From Cirrosporium novae-zelandiae (taxonomy: Eukaryota), in the NCBI GenBank assembly GCA_026023565.1, contig JAPETS010000032.1:124001-188000 (forward strand): 64,000 nt of DNA. The letters are read 5' to 3'. Position numbers and translations under genes: made by a program. Below the pieces are notes generated by a model. It searched no databases. It worked only from the letters and a program-made list of their open reading frames with translations, and was not told the origin of the DNA. Shown in pieces: positions 32,528 to 44,287 of the stretch; position 1 is the stretch's first letter, and the number at the start of each line of letters is the position of its first letter.

Positions 32528-34399
32528 ATGGCGATTGGCAACATCTACCTCATCTCCACCATCGCCATCATTGGCGGTGGTTTGTTCGGCTTCGATATTT
32601 CCTCAATGTCGGCCATCATCGTAACACCACAATATAAATGTTACTTCAACCAGGGCTCCGTCACCGCTGGAACTGATGACACATACCCATATCCAACATG
32701 TGCAGGTCCTAATTCCGACGTTCAAGGTGGTATTACAGCTTCCATGGCTGGTGGTTCGTGGTTGGGTGCACTGGTTTCAGGTATTCTTTCTGATCGTCTC
32801 GGTCGAAAGAAGGCTATTATGATTGGATCCTGCATCTGGTAAGCTAGAATTACCCCCATGTTGGAGAAGGATTTGTTTTTCTAATCATCTTCATCTGCCA
32901 GGTTAATCGGCTCCACCATCATCTGTGCCTCTCAAAACATTCCCATGCTCATTGTTGGCCGTATCATCAATGGTTTCTGTGTTGGTATTTGCTCTGCCCA
33001 AGTCCCTGTCTATATTGCCGAAGTGGCTCCACCCAGCAAGCGTGGTCGTCTCATAGGTGCTCAGCAATGGGCCATCACTTGGGGAATTCTGATTATGTTT
33101 TAGTACGTCTTAATTCTGGTAGTCCCTGTAAATGCTAGTACTAATATCTTATAAGCATTTCGTACGGTTGCTCTTTCATTAACGGCACAGCTGCCTTCCG
33201 TCTTCCATGGGGTCTCCAGATGATTCCCGCTATAATACTATTTGTCGGAATGATCCCTCTTCCCGAATCTCCCCGTTGGTTGGCTCGCAAAGACCGCTGG
33301 GAGGACTGCAGCGCTGTCTTGACTCTTGTTCACGGAAAAGGCGACCCAAACAGCCCATTCGTCCGAGCTGAAATGCAAGATATTAGGGATATGTGCGAAT
33401 TCGAGCGTAACAACTCCGATGTTACGTACCGGGAACTATTCGAGCCACATATGCTCAACCGTCTTCATATTGGTTTGTTCACTCAGATTTGGAGTCAAAT
33501 GACGGGTATGAATGTCATGGTAAGATCTACCGTTTCATATTTCGACTGCTTTCTATATTTAGAGAATGGAACCACCAAGCTAACTCTTACGTTCTTATCA
33601 GATGTACTACATTTCCTACATCTTCGAAATGGCGGGCCTCAATGGAAACAACCTTCTTGTTTCGTCCTCCATCCAATACGTCATCAACGTCCTCATGACC
33701 ATACCAGCTTTGATCTGGGTCGACCGCTGGGGACGTCGTCCAACCCTTCTTATCGGCGCCTTCTTCATGATGGTCTGGCTTTTCTGTAATGCTGGTCTCC
33801 TTGCAGGCTACGGCCATTATGCCGGCCCCGATGGCGTCAACGGTGACGCTGAAGCCTCCTGGGTTGTTCACGGTGCCCCCGCCAAGGGAGTTATCGCATG
33901 CTCGTATCTATTTGTCGCATCGTACGCTCCCACATGGGGCCCCGTCTCATGGACTTATCCACCAGAGCTTTACCCTCTCCGTGTTCGTGGCAAGGCTGTT
34001 GCGCTAGCCACATCCGCCAACTGGGCATTTAATTTCGCTCTCGGATATTTTGTTCCTCCCGCCTTTGTTAACATCAAATGGAGGACCTATCTCATCTTCG
34101 CCGTATTCTGCTTCACCATGTTCTGGCACGTATTCTTCATGTTCCCTGAAACCGCCGGCAAGACGCTAGAGGAGGTCGAGTACATCTTTACCGATCCCAA
34201 TGGCATCAAGTATATCGGCACGCCAGCCTGGAAGACCAAGGTCGATACCTCCAGGGCCGTTAAGCTCGAGCAGGGTGAACTGCAAGATGAGAAGAGGTTG
34301 CCATCCATTTCCCACGCCGAAGATGCGGCCGCAGTTGCTGATACAAGTCTGTCTGCGGATCCGGAGAAGACGGCGGCAACGGCGCAGGAATCTCGTTAG
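32528..34399 (+). CDS. MFS sugar porter, high-affinity glucose transporter (Hgt1-like); exons 32528-32838, 32902-33102, 33156-33519, 33602-34399
   Basis: Motifs GGLFGFDISSMS, SDRLGRK, QVPVYIAEVAP, PESPRWL, QMTGMNVMMYYI, DRWGRR and PETAGKTLEE. Three GT-AG introns. Confidence 0.93.
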
Positions 34400-36399
34400 A
34401 TAGGGGTTTCTTTTTGGTTTTTTGAGGATGAGAAGATGATGATGACGATGATGGATTATTGGTGAGTAATGCGTGGTACCATGTATATGCCTTCAAGAAA
34501 GACGAAACACATGAGGGGAGGGGAGGAAATGTTAAAGATATATTTCAATCTTGAAAAAAAAAGAAATTTCTGGGTAACATGTTCTTCTTCTCTTACAGAT
34601 GATACATATACCTTTCCTTCCCTTTCCCTTTTCTTTCTGATTTATTTTTCGATATGTATGTACGTTAGTTAATTGGTTAATCAGTACTTAATTTAAAGTA
34701 TACTGGCCACTTTGACTTGGTCTTTTTTTGTTGCTGTTGTTTAGAAATATACGTTATGAAGTAGGACGTAGGAAGTTGGACTTGTTAAATATATTAAAGC
34801 AAAACTAGATAAAACTGGATAATAAGGGGAAAGAGGGGAAGGAGGGGAAGGAGGGGAAGGGAAAATGAGCGGGGTTTTCCTTGGAAATAGAGGGGTAGCT
34901 ACTACTCTCCCTATTTGGGAATTATGAAATAAATAGACTCTGATAGTAGGAATTCTCTAGTATCAACCTATTACATGAATTAAAGAGTACATTCTGGAAT
35001 ATTGAAGGATAAGGGTAGATAGAACCTTAGGACTATAGAATAAATATTAGGGTTTTAGGAATTCCTGATGTTTTTCTCCCAAAATTGGTTATGATGCATA
35101 CTTTGATGTTAGGCTTCAGTTGTAACATTCATTGCAACTGACTTCTTCTTATACATAGATGATGATTCAACACACTTACAACATCCAATTTTATTTCATT
35201 CGAGACTATGACTTGTATTTGAAAAGGTGGACTGGATAGAAACAAGTCAAGGCTTGATTGATTGGGTTATTTCGTTATCTGCTTAGTGGGAGAGCAAAAG
35301 TTGGTGTTATTTAAGTAATAAAAAATGTTCTTGGCTAAATTGTAATCTAAGGGGGTCGCTTGGAAAATAGTTAGAATATAAGTAAGTCTCATCATCTTCC
35401 TGTCGGTTACAGATGCCAAGCTATGCTCACGCCTCAGGCATCTAATACACGCGACATCACATGACCTCGCGTTATATATTATCGCATCATATTCATATCA
35501 GTTTATACAACCTGGATCTGAGCCTGCGGGTAATCATTATTTTTTGCGGGGGAACCTTGTACTGTTGCCTAGCAACGCTTCCATTGTGTTCATCGGAGAC
35601 CTGCACGAACCCTTTCCGCCAGAACTTGGAACTCATTTTTTTGTCGAATTTTTGCGTCAGTACTATAAATCAGAACCTAATTTTTCTGGGGACGAAACAA
35701 ACACGGTATCAAGTAGATTTGATGTCCTACTCGAGTACATGTCTGCCTAATTCTACTCCTGTTTGTGGAAGTTTGGAAGTTGGAAAAGATTGTTTTGCAA
35801 GGGTGTCTACACAGCATCAATTGGTTTTACGGATTACCAGCTCCACACTTGCATATCTAGGCTTCTATTAACAAGAGGATGATAAGTATTCCAAGCCTTC
35901 AGCTAGGAACGACGAGAATCCGGACACGCCGGAGTAGCACATCGAGATCCTTTGAAATTATTGAAAGTTGGTTCTTGACTCACAAACACGGTGTGTAACA
36001 CATTTCTCAGAGTGTTTACTTCTGATGTGCATTGGCGGACAAGAGATGTGGCACTCATCCCTATGATTCACGCTCGAGCATTACAAGCAGACAAAGGATC
36101 AGTGTTGGGGGATGCAGTTGTTTGTTTCCCACTGGGTTAATTATCCAGCACCACTTTCTACCCCAAAGTGGTCTAGTTTAGAATCTACTTGACAGGGGGT
36201 CACTTTAGGATAAAGTTCCCCATCTGCCCCTACTAATCAATCTTGTTAGTTAGCAAGTCAAGGGAATCTCCAGCCTCTAGCCTCTTCACCACTCCTTGAG
36301 TGGACCAAGTGGATCTTCTCGCACAGTTACTTTGGAACAGGAACGCCAATCATTGTTGCGAATCTCTCGTCAGATCTTCAGATTTTCAGATAAGAACTT

Positions 36400-36522
36400 G
36401 TAAGTTTGCTCCGACTGTTTCTTAAATGGAATAAACAAACAAACAAACAAACAAACAACTCTATTATGACCGGATAGGCAAGACCTGAAATCGATTAATA
36501 CTAATAGAGATATTATTATTAG
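36400..36522 (+). other. Predicted 5'-UTR intron of the SPOK-like gene, containing an (AAAC)n microsatellite
   Basis: GTAAGT donor at 36400, CTAAT branch at 36501, TAG acceptor at 36520-36522, 10 nt before the ATG. About six AAAC units near 36433-36458. Confidence 0.6.
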
Positions 36523-36532
36523 TGCTTTAACT

Positions 36533-38680
36533 ATGTCGGAAAGTCCCACTATTGAGCAACTCCAGGAGCTGTTACAAAAAGAACAGGAGTCTCGACGTAA
36601 AGCTGAAGAGTCTCAACGTCAAGCTGAAGAGTCTCGACGTCAAGCAGAGTCGAAAATACAACGCACAACCTTCGGAGAATTTCTTGAAACCTGTCATGTT
36701 GTTCTTTCCAATCCCCTCATTGTTCAGGACAATAGGACCTTTGCCACAAAAGGTACCACCACGAATCCCAAAGGGAAGTATTGTCCCACCCATCTTCGCC
36801 ATTGGGATGATTTCCCTCAGGCACAGCAGCAGCTCTTTGATAACGTTCATGAACTGTTCCATCCCTCCTCTGAAAAACCGCAACGGCTTTTTTCGCCAAA
36901 GTTAGCACTGGAAGATCTTGGTCAAAGCCTATGCCGACGACCTCTTGCGAGCGAAGGTGATTTGCAATCTTACGAACGATTTGCGGTGGAAGGGAAGGTC
37001 ACCGATGTGGTATCCAACTTAATAAATATACCGCATGCCAACGAGAAATTTTCATTAGGAAAAGGTGTTGTATTTGAAAATCATGCTAACACGCTAAACG
37101 ATGATGTTGAAAAGGAACGATTCGGTAAACGTTCTCGGTTGGATCAGGTCTGCGTGTATCATAAAAACGACGGCAATCGCAGCCTCGCATTTGTAATTGA
37201 ATATAAAGCGGCCCATAAACTTTCGGTGGCATATTTTCGAGCGGGACTTCGGCCGATGAACCTTTGGGAAGAAGTGGTACAGCGAGTTACGGTGCCAACG
37301 GACCCTGATGAGAAATTAAAATATAATGCAGAGCGGTTGGTTGGGGCTGCCGTGACCCAAACTTTCTCATACATGATCGATGAGGGGATTGAGTATAGCT
37401 ACTTGACCAATGGTCTGGCACGTGTTTTTCTCCGAATCCGTCGCGATGATCCTACCACGCTCTACTATTATTTGGCTGAGCCGAATTTCGATGCCACAAT
37501 CGAGGATGAGCACGGGTTTCGATACGCACATACGGCGCTTGGTCGAGTTCTAGGTCTATGCTTGATGAGTCTTAATTCAAAAGTGCGAAGTCAAACGTGG
37601 CGGTCCGAGGCGAAGCAGCAGTTGCATCGATGGGAATATGATTTTGAATACGTTCTTAAACAGATGCCGATTTCGGAAAGGAAGCAGACTCCACCTGGAT
37701 CCGTATATCGAGAACCATCCTCTCCTTTTATCATTCGATCGGCATATCTACTCCGGCGGCGTCAAAATTGCGCACCACCAAACATTATTTCCAGGGACTC
37801 TCACAGCTCATCAGAAGAGTCTAGCGGGGATCAAGGTCCAGTCGATACTCCCAGTCGACCTGAAGGCGGTCAGAAAAGAAAACGGGTTCCGAATTCAAAC
37901 TTGTATTCGTCTCCAACTGGAGATCGAAGTCGACGCCATTCTGGGCATTCGCCTCAACAGTATTGCACACAGAAATGTTTACTTAACCTGAAAACTCGAG
38001 GCCTGTTAGATGAAAATTGTCCTAATGTCATGTTTCATCGCCAGAAAGTATGCGACAACCAGCATGCGATCGATCTGCCAGAACTGGTTAGGTTGACGAA
38101 ACAACAACTGGGAGCAGACTTGGATCATTACTGCGACCCTCTTGGGAAAAGCGGTGCACGAGGGGCTCTTTTCAAGATTACATTGATTTCACACGGCTAC
38201 ATGTTTGTGGGTAAAGGCACCAGGGATCGGTTTTTATATGATGCGCATCGCGAAGTTGGCGCGTATCGACGGCTGGAAAAAATTCAAGGTCTGGCCGTCC
38301 CAGTTTGTCTGGGAGGCATTGATCTGATTACGTGTTACTCTCTGGCTGCTGGGGTTGAAATTACGTACATGCTGTTGATGGCCTGGGGAGGTGAAATGGT
38401 AGATGACGTCCCAGGCCTATCACGACCGATTAAGCACAAGGAACTGGAACGGTCGATTCATGATGTGCGCCGGCTGGGAGTGAAGCATGAAGATCTACGC
38501 GGGCCGAATATGTTATGGAATCCGGAGCTTGGTCGGGTGTTATTGATCGACTTTTATGGACCAAGTTTAGTGGATATGGATGGTCGCAGAATCCTCGTGG
38601 AGATTTCACCTAATAAGAAAAGGAAACGGGTAAGGGACGAATTAGATCATGTGAAGCGGAAGAGACTTGTTTTAACTTAA
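36533..38680 (+). CDS. SPOK (spore killer)-family protein: coiled coil, PD-(D/E)xK nuclease, Cys cluster, kinase
   Basis: 715 aa with no introns in the CDS. Motifs recalled from Podospora SPOKs occur in the same order: RTTFGEFLETCH, GKYCPTHLRHWDDF, AFVIEYKAAHK, TQTFSYMI, QYCTQKCLL..LDENCPNV.FHR, GARGALFK..L..HGYMFVGKGT, HEDLRGPNMLWN and LIDF. Confidence 0.85.
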   Translation: MSESPTIEQLQELLQKEQESRRKAEESQRQAEESRRQAESKIQRTTFGEFLETCHVVLSNPLIVQDNRTFATKGTTTNPKGKYCPTHLRHWDDFPQAQQQLFDNVHELFHPSSEKPQRLFSPKLALEDLGQSLCRRPLASEGDLQSYERFAVEGKVTDVVSNLINIPHANEKFSLGKGVVFENHANTLNDDVEKERFGKRSRLDQVCVYHKNDGNRSLAFVIEYKAAHKLSVAYFRAGLRPMNLWEEVVQRVTVPTDPDEKLKYNAERLVGAAVTQTFSYMIDEGIEYSYLTNGLARVFLRIRRDDPTTLYYYLAEPNFDATIEDEHGFRYAHTALGRVLGLCLMSLNSKVRSQTWRSEAKQQLHRWEYDFEYVLKQMPISERKQTPPGSVYREPSSPFIIRSAYLLRRRQNCAPPNIISRDSHSSSEESSGDQGPVDTPSRPEGGQKRKRVPNSNLYSSPTGDRSRRHSGHSPQQYCTQKCLLNLKTRGLLDENCPNVMFHRQKVCDNQHAIDLPELVRLTKQQLGADLDHYCDPLGKSGARGALFKITLISHGYMFVGKGTRDRFLYDAHREVGAYRRLEKIQGLAVPVCLGGIDLITCYSLAAGVEITYMLLMAWGGEMVDDVPGLSRPIKHKELERSIHDVRRLGVKHEDLRGPNMLWNPELGRVLLIDFYGPSLVDMDGRRILVEISPNKKRKRVRDELDHVKRKRLVLT
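36587..36655 (+). repeat. 21-bp (heptad) coding tandem repeat, 3 copies, in the SPOK-like coiled coil
   Basis: GAGTCTCGACGTAAAGCTGAA / GAGTCTCAACGTCAAGCTGAA / GAGTCTCGACGTCAAGCAGAG, encoding ESRRKAE ESQRQAE ESRRQAE. Confidence 0.9.
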
Positions 38681-38901: not shown

Positions 38902-39162
38902 TGACACCGAGCACGCGGGACCCAAAATAAACGGGACTCACAAATTCCTTTTTTTTTGATTATTATTTTTCCTGGGGAGGCCTTCAAATTAAATTGTTAT
39001 TAAAATTAAACATTGATTTTGTTTGAAGGCCTCCCTAGGATCTTTTTTTTTTTTATTTTTGTTTTTGGGTGGGCGTAGTGTTGGGTAGGCACGTAGGCTG
39101 CCAGTGCTCGGGGAAAGGAATTTATGAGTCCTCTTTATTTTAAGACCCGCGTGTCCAGGTCA
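38902..39162. mobile_element. Non-coding foldback/MITE-like element with nested inverted repeats
   Basis: Outer arm CACGCGGGACCCAAAATAAACGGGACTCACAAATTCCTTT (38912-38951) versus reverse complement of 39114-39153, CACGCGGGTCTTAAAATAAAGAGGACTCATAAATTCCTTT. Inner 19-nt arms at 38971-38989 and 39021-39039 match at 17/19. No TSD seen. Confidence 0.65.
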
Positions 39163-40100
39163 CTTGTTGCTATAAGTACCTAGGGAGGTATGATATCATG
39201 TCATGGCGGCCTGCTATGCATGCGGATCTCGAGCCACTGAATTGATGGGGATTCTTTAAGTTAATGAGATAGACTCGATGGGTACAATGATATTTTAGAT
39301 TGCAACTGATGATTATATCTACGTAGTACTTGAGTACGAAAGCTCTTGATCTAACTTGACTAGATCTAGTATACTATTTTTCGTTGACATTGGATTATTA
39401 TTTCCGGGTACGCTGATGGCCGTTGGAATAGGTAGCTCCGCAACTGTTCCATAGTAGATATTTCCATCAGGTATGCATTCTTTACTCTTGGATATTTGGA
39501 AAATTGATTCTGTCTTCGTGATAAGGGGTGATGTTATTCCAGAGCATATCGTCACATTAGGTCTCTTGCCCTAGATGGCTTTTTCTGAGCTTCTACCTAG
39601 CAAGCAACACCACAATTAATTACGTGAAGTTCATTCACCAACGAGAATAGGCCTCACAGTAAGGTCATAATAAGCATAATTAACACTAATTACCCACCCT
39701 AAAAGTTCCCCAATCACGGACCGCACCGAAGATGCTTTAGGTGTTTGAGGTACTTTCACTAGGGTACCGCTGGGCGTCCTTCCTCCCTCGCTTTTGGGGG
39801 GAGGGGGGAGGGTATTCCAGCAAGAAAAGGCAACGGGCATTATCACTTTTCTAAAAAAAGAAGCATCTAAAATTATTAAACTGGCCTATATGTCCTCGAG
39901 CTTCTTTCACGCCTCTAAGGTGATGCAGCGTTTAAAAACCGTGACTGGGTTCATTAACTTGGTACCGCGTCAAGTTCCATTCACGATACAAATTCGTTGC
40001 AACATTGGACGGTCATTTTCTACCGACCTTTCTGGTAAGCGTACTTGCAAAATTCCTTTGGGCTGTTTTGTTAACTTCCTTTTCGTTCGCTACAGGATCC

Positions 40101-41705
40101 ATGGATCCAGATAAAGCTAGCGAAAACCCTTTCTTTCATTATACCTCTGGACGTTGGCTATGGGATGAGGCGAACCAGCTCCGAAAACGTTCCCAGCCTT
40201 TTAATATTGAAATGCTTAAAGAAACCGCGGCTAGATCAGTCAACGCGAGCTCTTGTATTAGTATGGCCAAACTGCCTGAAGGCTCAGATAATAGGGTCTT
40301 CTTGTTGACGATGGGTAACGGTGTGCAAGTCGTTGCAAAGATCCCTAATCCTTATCTCCCTCAGAAAGTCGTGATAGCTAGTGAAGTTGTAACTCTTGAT
40401 TTCTTTCGGAATGTATTGAATATTCCTGTTCCACAAGTCTTCGCTTGGAGCAGCAACAAAGATCAAGCCATCGGAGTGGAATATATTATTATGGAAAAGG
40501 CTCCAGGTAAGGAGCTTAGGGAATCCTGGGCAACTATGGATATATCGGACAGGGTGGACATCGTGTCTCAACTTGCGAGCATTCAAACGAAAATATCTTC
40601 TACTGATTTTAGATATTACGGGAGCTTGTACTATCGTAGCGAAACGAACGCTTATCTAGATATCCCTGGAGAGCCGGAGCGATTTTGCATTGGTCCTTCT
40701 TCCGCAATACGTTTTTGGGAAGCAGAACGAAGGTCTATGGATGAATACAGAGGGCCTTGTAAGCAAGCACGGGAACACGATTTCTCACATTCAACTAACA
40801 AACTATCTCGCAAAATAAGGGTCATTGCCTATCTCTTACGCGAAAGACACCGCAAAACGAGAGAGACAATGGATAAAGCGGTTTGCAGAACCTCACGATA
40901 TGGCTAATCCCTTGCGGCAGTCTGATGATCAAGAATCTCCTGACTGCCATATTCAACTTCTAGACAAATATCTGAAAATCATATCCCATTTGATATCTCC
41001 AAACCATGACCTACATCGATCCACACTTTGGTATCCCGATTTGAACTGTAGAAATATCTTTGTTGAGAATAACAAGATTGTATCAGCCTTCCGCTTTTTA
41101 TTACCTGCCGAATACCAAAGTTTCTCAAGATCAACGGGCCCCTGCTTTTTGATCTTCCTCCTGCCACAGGGCTCACCGCACAGGAGAAAAAGGAAAACTT
41201 ACTCAGGTATCAGCTTACGCAATTACAGAGGTTTTACATTTCTAAATTCCAAAATCTGGACAATGGGGTCTTCCGTGCCCTTTCCGACCCTCACGCCTTA
41301 ACTCGACAGCAACTTGTCGACTTTGCAGGGTCTACCTGGGAAGACGATGGACTATTTCTTTTCCGGGAAATGATGCATCGAACACGGCGTGACTGGGAGG
41401 AAATAACAGGTCGACCACGCTGCGAGTGTCCCGTGTCATTTAGCCCCGATGAACTTTCATCCCATACCGCCGAAGGAAAATGCTAGAATGATCATAGAGA
41501 CTTCTTCGACTTTCTCGGTATCCCTATTGACGGCTAGGTACACCCCGAGGACTTCGAAGCCAAGATAGAGACGATGCGGAATCCAGCTACAGAGATGATA
41601 GATGCTGCGGACGATAAGGAGGAGAAGAGACGTGCGCTAAGGGCTTGGAAGCTGACGAAATCAGGGACTACTATGTGCCTACCAGGCGATGTCATGGATA
41701 TCTAA
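40101..41705 (+). pseudogene. Aminoglycoside-phosphotransferase-like (APH/Aim9-like) kinase pseudogene; intron 40759-40819
   Basis: Motifs FFHYTSGRWLWDE, KLPEGSDNRVFLLTM, VVAKIP, ASEV.TLDF, PVPQVFAW and GVEYIIMEKAPG. The IDWQ motif is missing and the frame shifts at about 41081. In-frame TAG at 41484-41486 and 41535-41537. Confidence 0.85.
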
Positions 41706-42570: not shown

Positions 42571-44287
42571 TCAATCCCAATCGCCCCTCCATGTATCGTG
42601 CCCGTTCTCATCATCACCGATATCCTCCCCCCTCCTCTGCATCTCCAATTCTTCTCCCTTCCAAAAAGACTCATGATCCGCATATTGCTCGGCTTTCCGG
42701 CCTAAGATCTGATCTGCTTTTCCAGGAGACCTTTTTCCATTCGTAGGTACTTCTTTTGGTCCCGTAGAGGTCATGAGCCAGTGTCTGTTATCAGCTCCAG
42801 CCCCGTCCATATTCCCATTCCCGTTCAAATTCCCACCTGAGCCTCCGTTCAGCTGCGGTCGCCAATTTGGTACCCGCGAATCAATCGGCGCTCGACCCCT
42901 GCCTGCCATCTGTTGCTGTCCATTACTATGATTGTATCCCATAACAGCTGCACTGCCCTCCCACTCTTCCTCTCTAGCTTTCCGTACCCGCTCCCGTGCT
43001 TCCACCCACGCCTGGCTGGGCTCCCAGTTCCACCCATCACCAGTTGTGTTGCAGATGGGGAAAAACCAGAGTAAAGGAATCGGCCCAAACAGGTGCACCA
43101 GATTGCGCCGCCAGCCCAAGTCCCATGCGTTGGGAAGGGATTCCGAGGCTTGTTCGTCCAGGTACGACGAGTAGCGATCACGTTCGCGTTCACGTTCGCG
43201 CGCCACGAAGGAGTTGTAGGGCGAAGGCGTGGCATGTTGGGAGAGGGATCGGTGCGCTGGGGAGGATGAATGAGACATACTATGCGACGGGGAGGGTGAA
43301 GAGTGTCGGGATTCGCCTTCTTCAGGCCGCGTAATTCCTGGGAGGGCATTGGCGTGGATTTCATAGAGTTGCTGGCCAAGTTGACCGAGACTTGGAGGGT
43401 CGTGTTCTGAATCTGAGATGTTTGAAAACGTTGAGGAAGGGAAATGGTGGTGTTGTGCTGCTTTACGGAGGGGTGAGAGGTAGCGGGTCTTTTCTAGGCA
43501 TTCGATGGTTGTTTGGCCGCGTATTGACAGCCAAATGTGCCAGCATGTAAAACCTGTCAAGACTAAACCGATAATTCCAGATATTACGACTAGAAGGACA
43601 TAGTTCACAGGCATAAGTGATTCGACCCATTGTCCATCACTCAATATCTCGCACCAAAGCCACGAGGCCGAGAGGAGTAGACATGTCCAACAGAAAAGGC
43701 TAGTATAGACGAGGAACAGTATGAATGCCTTGTAATTATGCAATCCAACACAAGTTGCTAGCCACGGACAATGATGATCCATTTTCAATACACATCGTCC
43801 GCAGGTGGAGCAATGATGTGCGCGGTCTGGCTTCTGTGCCTCACATTTTTTGCAGAATCTTGTTTCGCCGGTTGAGCTAACCGTGACGGATTTGAAGGTG
43901 ATGGGTTCGTGGGTTGGTAGGTGACTATAGCCATTTTTCGAAGTGAGCGGGGAGCCTGGATCGGTGAAGACGGCAGTGGTATAAGACCAATTGAGAAGAA
44001 GGCAAAGAATGATTCCGAGAGTAGAACAAGCGCGCGCTAGATGGAATAATATATTAGCAAGAGTCCTATTTAATTTGACTGTATAGTTTACCTAGAACAG
44101 TATGATTTGGAAAGGCAAGTCCTATGTGCGCTTGGACCCAAACAGCCCAAGTACTAAGTCCGTAGATAAAAGCAAGGGGAAAATAAGTCACTCCGATGCA
44201 GCAATACCGTTCACATTTACGAGCACATGCCTTGGACCTTCGTCTAGGAATAGGTGAAGAAGGGACATCTTGGGCGAGAGTTGCCAT
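42571..44287 (-). CDS. PFA3: DHHC palmitoyltransferase Pfa3; exons 44287-44092 and 44036-42571
   Basis: Motifs [66 protein letters not shown] and [10 protein letters not shown]. Confidence 0.92.

Follow-up and report, generated by a model that had tools for sequence, protein, structure and literature searches.

The Spok-family gene and its predicted protein

The window analyzed here, meaning the whole stretch of 64,000 nucleotides (nt) taken from Cirrosporium novae-zelandiae contig JAPETS010000032.1 (positions 124,001 to 188,000), carries a complete, intron-less coding sequence (CDS) for a Spok-family protein, P0001, at 36533..38680 on the plus strand. The open reading frame (ORF) was taken from the ORF list, runs from ATG to TAA and encodes 715 amino acids, and homologues cover 83–99% of it. 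An initial annotation of this DNA had proposed that the gene belongs to the fungal Spok family and has a three-part architecture, and both proposals are borne out by the SPOK2_N family assignment, by residue conservation and by the kinase and nuclease folds described below. The view that P0001 is a genuine and intact family member is thus supported.

The family assignment itself is a precomputed Pfam annotation, PF27653.1, which is found on P0001 and on all 120 of the homologues listed; ESM Atlas output gives PF27653 the name SPOK2_N. The local Pfam copy lacks this model, and the sole match it returned for P0001 was a sub-threshold one to Jak1_Phl (E 0.11), which reflects the gap between library versions and is not evidence against Spok membership. 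When 8000 candidates were scored, 280 proteins matched P0001 at E ≤ 0.001, and among the 120 matches listed the E-values ranged from 3.7e-268 to 2.1e-152, so that the similarity cannot be put down to chance. Three ESM Atlas clusters carrying SPOK2_N have 52, 422 and 2593 members, and an exhaustive phmmer search of 1.84 billion representatives returned 2695 sequences at E ≤ 0.001; of these, 1774 remain at a cut-off of 1e-10 and 811 at one of 1e-30. The Spok family is very large, and P0001 is one among thousands of uncharacterized homologues. This size agrees with the wide distribution described by Grognet et al. in 2014, who reported homologues, patchily, in all major classes of the Pezizomycotina except the two basal ones (PMC4022471).

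The sequence features that the initial annotation had read from the ORF are all present. A script places EYKAAHK at residues 223–229, with K225 within it; the Cys motif reads C478-x3-C482-x13-C496; and HED, with D654, occupies residues 652–654, followed by LIDF at 671–674. The heptad repeats were also confirmed, since Tandem Repeats Finder reports a 21-nt (7-amino-acid) unit at 36587-36645, in 2.8 copies with 92% matches. The repeat falls within a long N-terminal helix of the AlphaFold2 model (residues 7–42; 36551..36658), which appears to be coiled-coil-like. In SPOK3 of Podospora, the N-terminal coiled coil likewise corresponds to a nucleotide repeat of variable length (PMC6660238). Two further repeats lie upstream of the gene: the tetranucleotide AAAC, repeated 6.5 times, forms a microsatellite at 36433-36458, and a repeat of 8 nt occupies 36370-36391. 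On the 3' side, about 290 nt beyond the stop codon, lies an inverted repeat (38970-39040) whose 25-nt arms are 88% complementary and enclose a 21-nt loop.

The remainder of the protein, all of it encoded on the plus strand, can be divided into six parts. Domain 1 (residues 43–187; 36659..37093) is predicted to be folded, with a per-residue model confidence (pLDDT) mostly above 90, and has no family name; the corresponding part of the Spok proteins is described as being of no known function (PMC6660238). It is followed by a PD-(D/E)XK-type nuclease domain (residues 196–400; 37118..37732), assigned from motif residues, conservation and VIA-align fold matches. The motif reads D204-x18-E223-x-K225 and is predicted to be catalytic, with the putative catalytic residues encoded at 37142-37144 (D204), 37199-37201 (E223) and 37205-37207 (K225), and a QxxxY motif, Q276-x3-Y280, was placed at 37358-37372. 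A linker rich in Ser, Pro and Arg (residues 407–473; 37751..37951) is predicted to be disordered, with pLDDT below 50 and a median identity of 21% across the homologue alignment. The Cys/His cluster, C478-x3-C482-x13-C496-x5-H502-x8-H511 (37964..38065), leads into a short kinase domain (residues 512–685; 38066..38587) with K561, E574, H652-E-D654, N659 and D673-F674, which was recognized by Foldseek, VIA-align and a profile match. Last comes a basic tail (38588..38677) of low to moderate pLDDT, with KKRKR at 695–699, KRKR at 708–711 and a terminal helix at 699–714. Together with a KRKR run at 448–451 in the linker, the two basic runs of the tail look, as motifs, like nuclear localization signals. 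Such signals would fit the nuclear localization of Spok proteins given by Urquhart & Gardiner, who cite Grognet et al. (PMC9972908).

The SPOK3 landmarks that the initial annotation had cited (K240, D667, C493/C497/C511 and the C-x3-C-x13-C spacing) are all found in Vogan et al. 2019 (PMC6660238), and these allow the spacings to be compared. Podospora SPOK1-4 share with P0001 the same order of parts, namely repeat or coiled coil, domain 1, D...ExK with QxxxY, disordered linker, Cys/His cluster and kinase Asp, and in both cases the CDS has no intron; the Podospora genes have one in the 5' untranslated region. The PD-(D/E)XK motif of SPOK3 spans residues 219–240, so that the distance from the first Asp to the catalytic Lys is 21 residues in both proteins (204 to 225 and 219 to 240). 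The distance from this Lys to the first Cys of the cluster is also the same, 253 residues, and that to the kinase Asp is 429 in P0001 versus 427 in SPOK3; the identical Cys spacing and the near-identical Lys-to-Asp distance had both been pointed out in the initial annotation. From the Lys to the Q of QxxxY there are 51 residues in P0001 and 54 in SPOK3, where QxxxY lies at 294–298. The second His of the cluster is reached after x8 in P0001, versus x7 in SPOK3 as its motif, C-x3-C-x13-C-x5-H-x7-H, is written in that paper (PMC6660238).

The full-length AlphaFold2 model, built from a 68-row alignment, has a mean pLDDT of 83.6 and a predicted template modelling score (pTM) of 0.80. It predicts, in order, the helix at 7–42, a folded part extending to about residue 400, the disordered segment at 407–473 and a folded C-terminal part. 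For the kinase part, a Foldseek search of the PDB returned kinases, with Rio2 (1zar) on top at E 2.5e-6, and VIA-align over 48,161 chains also returned kinases, with Z of 10–13.3 over residues 512–684. A Spok family profile searched against the PDB matched Cdc7 (E 1.6e-5) at the catalytic loop and DFG region. With the P0001 sequence alone, the PDB search gave just Cdc7 at E 0.062, so that at the sequence level no solved structure of a Spok protein can be recognized. Like RIO kinases, Kdo/WaaP and OspG, P0001 has a short kinase fold that ends soon after the DFG-like D673-F674, and a minority of the Spok homologues have a precomputed Kdo (PF06293) match. The kinase of P0001 differs from theirs in sharing its polypeptide with a nuclease and a Cys/His cluster.

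The N-terminal part was also modelled separately (residues 43–405; pLDDT 88.9, pTM 0.89). The top VIA-align match of this model was BpuSI, a type IIG enzyme, through its nuclease domain (3s1s_A; Z 9.5, root-mean-square deviation 3.9 over 158 residues), followed by DrdV (7lo5, Z 7.0), a putative Vibrio vulnificus HsdR fragment (3h1t, Z 6.3) and HsdR of EcoR124I (2w00, Z 6.2); the tool itself cautions that a Z under about 8 may come from an arrangement that is simply common. Of the 12 rows that reached a Z of 5.2 or more, nine bear the title of a restriction enzyme or another nuclease, two (Z 8.3 and 7.0) belong to a mitoribosomal chain and one is a hypothetical protein. These restriction nucleases of types I, IIG and IIL share the D...ExK signature with P0001 and are its best fold matches (Z 6.2–9.5 over 127–158 residues), whereas sequence identity to them is 7–15% and P0001 has none of their motor, methylase and specificity modules. 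The nuclease matches fit both the D...ExK motif and the HsdR match that Vogan et al. report for SPOK3; 3h1t appears to be the very HsdR entry (Uyen et al. 2009) that they give as its best HHpred match. We consider the fold evidence for a nuclease in the modelled segment to be supportive, not decisive. The BpuSI alignment spans model residues 8–329, that is, residues 50–371 of P0001 (window ~36680-37645), and so reaches into domain 1. Domain 1 may be integral to the nuclease fold unit and not a separate module.

Conservation and relatives

Conservation was assessed in an alignment of P0001 with 67 homologues drawn from two homologue searches; most of these are near full length, and the alignment is thus biased toward intact genes. 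All 68 sequences keep D204, K225, Q276, C478, C482, C496, H502, H511, K561, E574, D654, N659 and D673, and hence the five residues of the Cys/His cluster are invariant. E223 is kept in 67 and H652 in 65 of the sequences, while Y280 is kept in just 35, and the gap between the two cluster His residues is eight in 64 of them, P0001 included. In total, 48 columns are invariant. On this alignment, it is the rule in the Spok family that the Lys of killing and the Asp of resistance are both kept, and keeping them does not mark out a driver. The initial annotation had proposed a candidate driver on the grounds that all key residues were kept. The residues are indeed kept, but the step from there to a driver is a weak one: K225, D654 and the Cys residues are present in every aligned sequence and so do not single out this gene, and four of six Fusarium homologues with conserved sites showed no toxicity in yeast.

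Among the matches listed, the closest one other than P0001 itself is ENA protein P0002, at 58% identity, and the next are at 52% or less; the best named matches are from Xylona heveae (46%), Aspergillus (45%) and Amorphotheca (43%). In a FastTree tree of 79 sequences, P0001 and P0002 are paired with a support of 97, on long branches (0.44 and 0.39) and without other close kin. Because of this isolated position, the tree gives no sign of a recent transfer of the Spok gene into the C. novae-zelandiae genome. Identity between the two proteins is 70% in the nuclease, 63% in domain 1 and 56% in the kinase, but falls to 39% in the linker and 37% in the tail. The folded domains have been kept while linker and tail diverged, a pattern that is expected under, and thus fits, purifying selection on both enzymatic parts.

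The tree also places homologues from Fusarium, Stachybotrys and Emericellopsis (Sordariomycetes) and from Acidomyces (Dothideomycetes) within an Aspergillus/Penicillium clade, at 57–76% identity (P0117, P0122, P0197, P0224, P0144). This nesting across classes is a clear incongruence, compatible with horizontal transfer, and it fits the horizontal spread described in the literature. In addition, the 7-amino-acid repeat units vary in copy number within one cluster of homologues at 90% identity (P0252/P0388-P0394), and members of a second such cluster, from Microsporum (P0249/P0395-P0397), differ by a 14-amino-acid unit. Variation in repeat number in the N-terminal coiled coil therefore looks to be family-wide, as for the Podospora Spoks.

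No Podospora protein was found in either homologue listing, be it the 120 obtained with P0001 or the 120 obtained with the Fusarium match P0117 as query. A landmark scan of 387 proteins found none exactly at the SPOK3 or SPOK1 landmark positions, and a look-up of ten candidate clusters gave Microsporum names or none, with no Podospora name.

Genomic setting and host

The Spok gene lies among ordinary cellular genes. On its 5' side these are, in order, RRP5, a WD40 protein, CAND1/TIP120, PLAC8, Hobbit/FMP27, a transglutaminase-like protein and a sugar transporter ending at 34399; on its 3' side follow an APH-family phosphotransferase, a DHHC palmitoyltransferase, a TFIIIC subunit and a PGP phosphatase. 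The assignments come from 36 stop-to-stop ORF translations scanned with Pfam: 14 measure at least 110 amino acids, and the other 22 were among the 44 listed that measure at least 130. The immediate upstream neighbor consists of the 3' exons of the transporter gene, of the sugar/major facilitator superfamily type (33145..34399, plus strand; Pfam Sugar_tr E 3.6e-20 and 3.6e-43). Downstream, the APH-family gene occupies several frames at 39749..41486 on the plus strand (Pfam APH E 4.6e-8 on 39945-40904), and the DHHC gene lies at 42571..44091 on the minus strand (Pfam DHHC E 1.8e-37). The APH-family ORFs are spread over three frames, which could mean short introns or disruption, and the protein start falls around '...FFHYTSGRWLWDE'. 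We considered whether the APH ORF could be a second Spok-like kinase, but it has no similarity to P0001 and this was ruled out.

The initial annotation had described the site as a gene-poor island between the transporter and PFA3. This description does not hold, as it overlooked the APH-family gene at ~39.7–41.5 kb within that interval, and the intergenic gaps around the Spok gene are ~2.1 kb upstream and ~1.1 kb downstream. The gene sits in a core-type housekeeping neighborhood of normal density. None of the 36 window ORFs scanned with Pfam carries a transposase, reverse transcriptase or DUF3435 domain, and between 30 and 46 kb direct repeats are absent and the sole inverted ones are two short pairs. 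Dinucleotide indices for repeat-induced point mutation (RIP) are unremarkable, with no RIP-like skew. The Spok CDS has a GC content of 0.472 and a GC content at third codon positions (GC3) of 0.431, and GC3 is 0.40–0.43 for six of eight neighboring genes (0.41–0.43 for Hobbit, TFIIIC, RRP5, CAND1 and APH), the DHHC gene at 0.51 and the transporter exon at 0.61 being higher. By tblastn there is one Spok copy alone in the window. Elsewhere in the window, an ORF with a weak DUF7924 match (E 5.2e-5, below the Pfam cut-off) lies at 58866-59783 on the minus strand, followed by the kilobase of lowest GC content (0.357), at 60001-61000.

Within the window there is no sign of a transposon-borne or Starship-borne context for the Spok gene, although a Starship larger than 64 kb would escape this view. 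This sets the locus apart from known systems. Podospora Spoks lie in the context of transposons or of an Enterprise/Starship block, whereas this gene lies among housekeeping genes, in a host of another class that has no known sexual morph. Similarly, Fusarium Spoks, which fall into four clades, are multi-copy and enriched on accessory chromosomes, with 33 of 408 located in Starships, whereas the present gene is a single copy in a core-like window. The context speaks mildly against a mobile or recently invading element. Given the host-like GC3, the lack of RIP-like skew and of flanking repeats, and the isolated long branch shared with P0002 alone, a long residency of the gene in this genome is suggested.

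For a broader view of Spok contexts, metagenome data yielded 336 pattern matches, of which 272 encode relatives; 80 loci were kept, at 33–51% identity to P0001. None of the 80 has a tblastn match (E ≤ 1e-5) to nine neighboring ORFs of the window, which says little at this level of identity. The gene contexts were scanned in 67 of 131 ORFs of at least 300 amino acids from 37 loci of at least 15 kb, leaving out Spok ORFs and the ORFs of duplicate loci. The contexts are mixed. Genes of the NACHT, HeLo or TPR type occur in L013, L015, L037, L048, L051 and L059; apart from these and the two cases that follow, the genes are of metabolic and housekeeping types. In one locus, an ORF with DUF3435, the type of Starship captains, lies about 0.6 kb downstream of the Spok homologue (L016:12637-13605, minus strand), and in another a DDE transposase of the Tc1/mariner type lies directly downstream (L029:12423-13757, plus strand). 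Just one of the 80 loci has two divergent Spok copies, L051:3577-5676 and L051:10001-12088, each about 33% identical to P0001; they are about 4 kb apart with a NACHT-domain ORF between them.

As to the host, NCBI taxonomy places C. novae-zelandiae in the Xylobotryomycetes, and the diagnosis of the Cirrosporiaceae states "Sexual morphs unknown" (PMC6712537). As no sexual morph is known, the crosses proposed in the initial annotation are not possible at present. The nearest matches of the neighboring TFIIIC ORF, other than itself, are just 33–38% identical, indicating that no close relative has been sequenced for comparison. In a search of sequencing runs, the window stretch was matched by one DNA run alone, which is its probable source, and no RNA run was among the matches listed.

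Possible toxin/antidote activity and its alternatives

What P0001 might do can be judged from the Spok proteins that have been tested. In SPOK3, K240A abolishes killing and leaves resistance intact, whereas C493A/C497A and C511A/S abolish resistance and are toxic unless the wild type is co-expressed, as is the kinase mutant D667A (PMC6660238). The Spok1 D680A allele kills both E. coli and yeast, with DNA-damage signatures and in a manner that depends on the nuclease domain (PMC9972908). In Podospora, a single Spok gene suffices for drive; Spok1 kills in Sordaria too, and killing in Podospora was also seen with a Nectria (Fusarium vanettenii) homologue whose identity to Spok1/2 is just 33–34% (PMC4022471). 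The initial annotation had raised the possibility of an uncharacterized spore killer outside Podospora; work outside that genus is no longer new, since Fusarium homologues have already been tested. Two F. poae homologues (FuSpok1/2; PQ540985, PQ540984) are toxic in yeast as D-to-A alleles, and the four of six Fusarium homologues that lacked toxicity in yeast also have conserved sites (PMC12693581). One of these four, FOXG_14774, the DC12 spok of F. oxysporum Fol4287, is nevertheless reported to function in its own host, with less chromosome loss and a competitive advantage in vegetative growth that depends on hyphal fusion (bioRxiv 10.64898/2026.10.04.756499). Like P0001, the Fusarium homologues lie outside Podospora and have conserved catalytic residues; some of them act as toxin/antidote in yeast or in vegetative growth, the kind of action that matters most for a fungus in which sex is not known.

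In light of these precedents, we lean slightly toward the reading that P0001 is its own poison and antidote, that is, an intact nuclease toxin/antidote protein of the Spok family, encoded by a long-resident single local copy. Taken by itself, toxin/antidote activity of the protein seems to us about evenly balanced between presence and absence. If P0001 works as its tested homologues do, its nuclease domain, with D204/E223/K225, would attack and damage DNA, and the Cys cluster and kinase (D654) would neutralize this toxicity, in cis and in trans, in cells that still make the protein. As the fungus has no known sex, a selfish effect, if there is one, would more plausibly appear in vegetative growth (post-segregationally or once hyphae have fused) than as meiotic drive that can be demonstrated. 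There are functional parallels in wtf and tdk1 of fission yeast, in bacterial toxin-antitoxin pairs and in restriction-modification systems, where one locus provides both poison and antidote and the losers die (PMC6660238, PMC9972908). The parallel is one of function alone, as these systems have no kinship with Spok in sequence or fold, and in Spok both activities reside on one polypeptide.

Several observations weigh against the toxin/antidote reading. Conserved residues are no guarantee of function, as the Fusarium proteins without effect in yeast demonstrate (PMC12693581), although FOXG_14774 is reported to be functional (bioRxiv 10.64898/2026.10.04.756499). The likeness to Podospora SPOK1-4 is drawn from the Pfam assignment together with the motif spacings published in PMC6660238, and the local Pfam scan, whose library lacks PF27653, did not reproduce the PF27653 match. 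Foldseek returned no match for the N-terminal model (43–405) at E ≤ 0.001, the best being E 0.2, and the VIA-align scores of 6–9.5 for nucleases lie in an ambiguous range, in which a mitoribosomal chain reached 8.3. Lastly, a core-like site without transposons is unlike that of most characterized Spoks.

Alternatively, P0001 could be a domesticated or originally non-selfish nuclease-kinase, serving in DNA metabolism, in defense against foreign DNA or in non-self recognition, and showing no addiction behavior. The core-type location, the host-like GC3 and the lack of a mobile-element context would agree with this, as would the conservation of both domains relative to the 58%-identical P0002 on an isolated branch, which fits vertical descent; some metagenome homologues moreover adjoin genes of the NLR or HeLo type (L013, L037, L051). 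Sandell et al. raised a native function other than toxin/antidote for Spok homologues, and deemed it unlikely (PMC12693581). We also find this alternative unlikely: no family member with a demonstrated non-selfish role appears in the literature examined, the patchy distribution and frequent pseudogenes reported by Grognet et al. (PMC4022471) fit dispensable elements, and the metagenome loci share no neighbors with the present locus.

A more specific form of selfish action is a toxin/antidote that is still active and has reached fixation within the core genome of this isolated and apparently asexual lineage of the Xylobotryomycetes. It would be maintained by killing those nuclei or hyphal compartments that go without it, whether after fusion or through loss during segregation. 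We regard this as a rather improbable state of affairs. If true, it would give Spok a vegetative "addiction" role outside the Sordariomycetes and outside an accessory chromosome or Starship.

The gene could also be an inert relic, in which the frame is open and the motifs are kept but both activities have been lost through changes elsewhere. The Fusarium homologues with conserved active sites but no effect in yeast lend this some plausibility, as does the absence of an RNA run from the listed matches, but FOXG_14774, negative in yeast, appears functional in its own host. A frame of 715 codons has stayed open, and the folded domains are far more conserved than the linkers in the comparison with P0002, which points to continued selection; P0001 also keeps all 48 invariant columns, as it must by definition. 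A relic therefore seems to us a rather poor prospect.

An active meiotic driver, or spore killer, would eliminate the ascospores without the gene in crosses between carriers and non-carriers. In its favor are the complete architecture, in which each residue linked to killing or to resistance is present, and the Podospora, Sordaria and Nectria precedents. It is nevertheless very unlikely given the lack of a known sexual morph, the housekeeping neighbors, host-like composition, single copy and lack of transposon hallmarks in the window, and the fact that a driver gone to fixation drives no longer; meiotic drive by this gene is unsupported.

Returning to the toxin/antidote reading, the gene has a practical value as a compact, intron-less and divergent test case for the published toxicity assays in yeast and E. 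coli. If P0001 is active, self-neutralizing nucleases of the Spok type would reach into a deep and poorly sampled branch of the Pezizomycotina and into a core-genome setting. Such activity would bear on the question of whether the Spok family was ancestrally selfish or ancestrally cellular.

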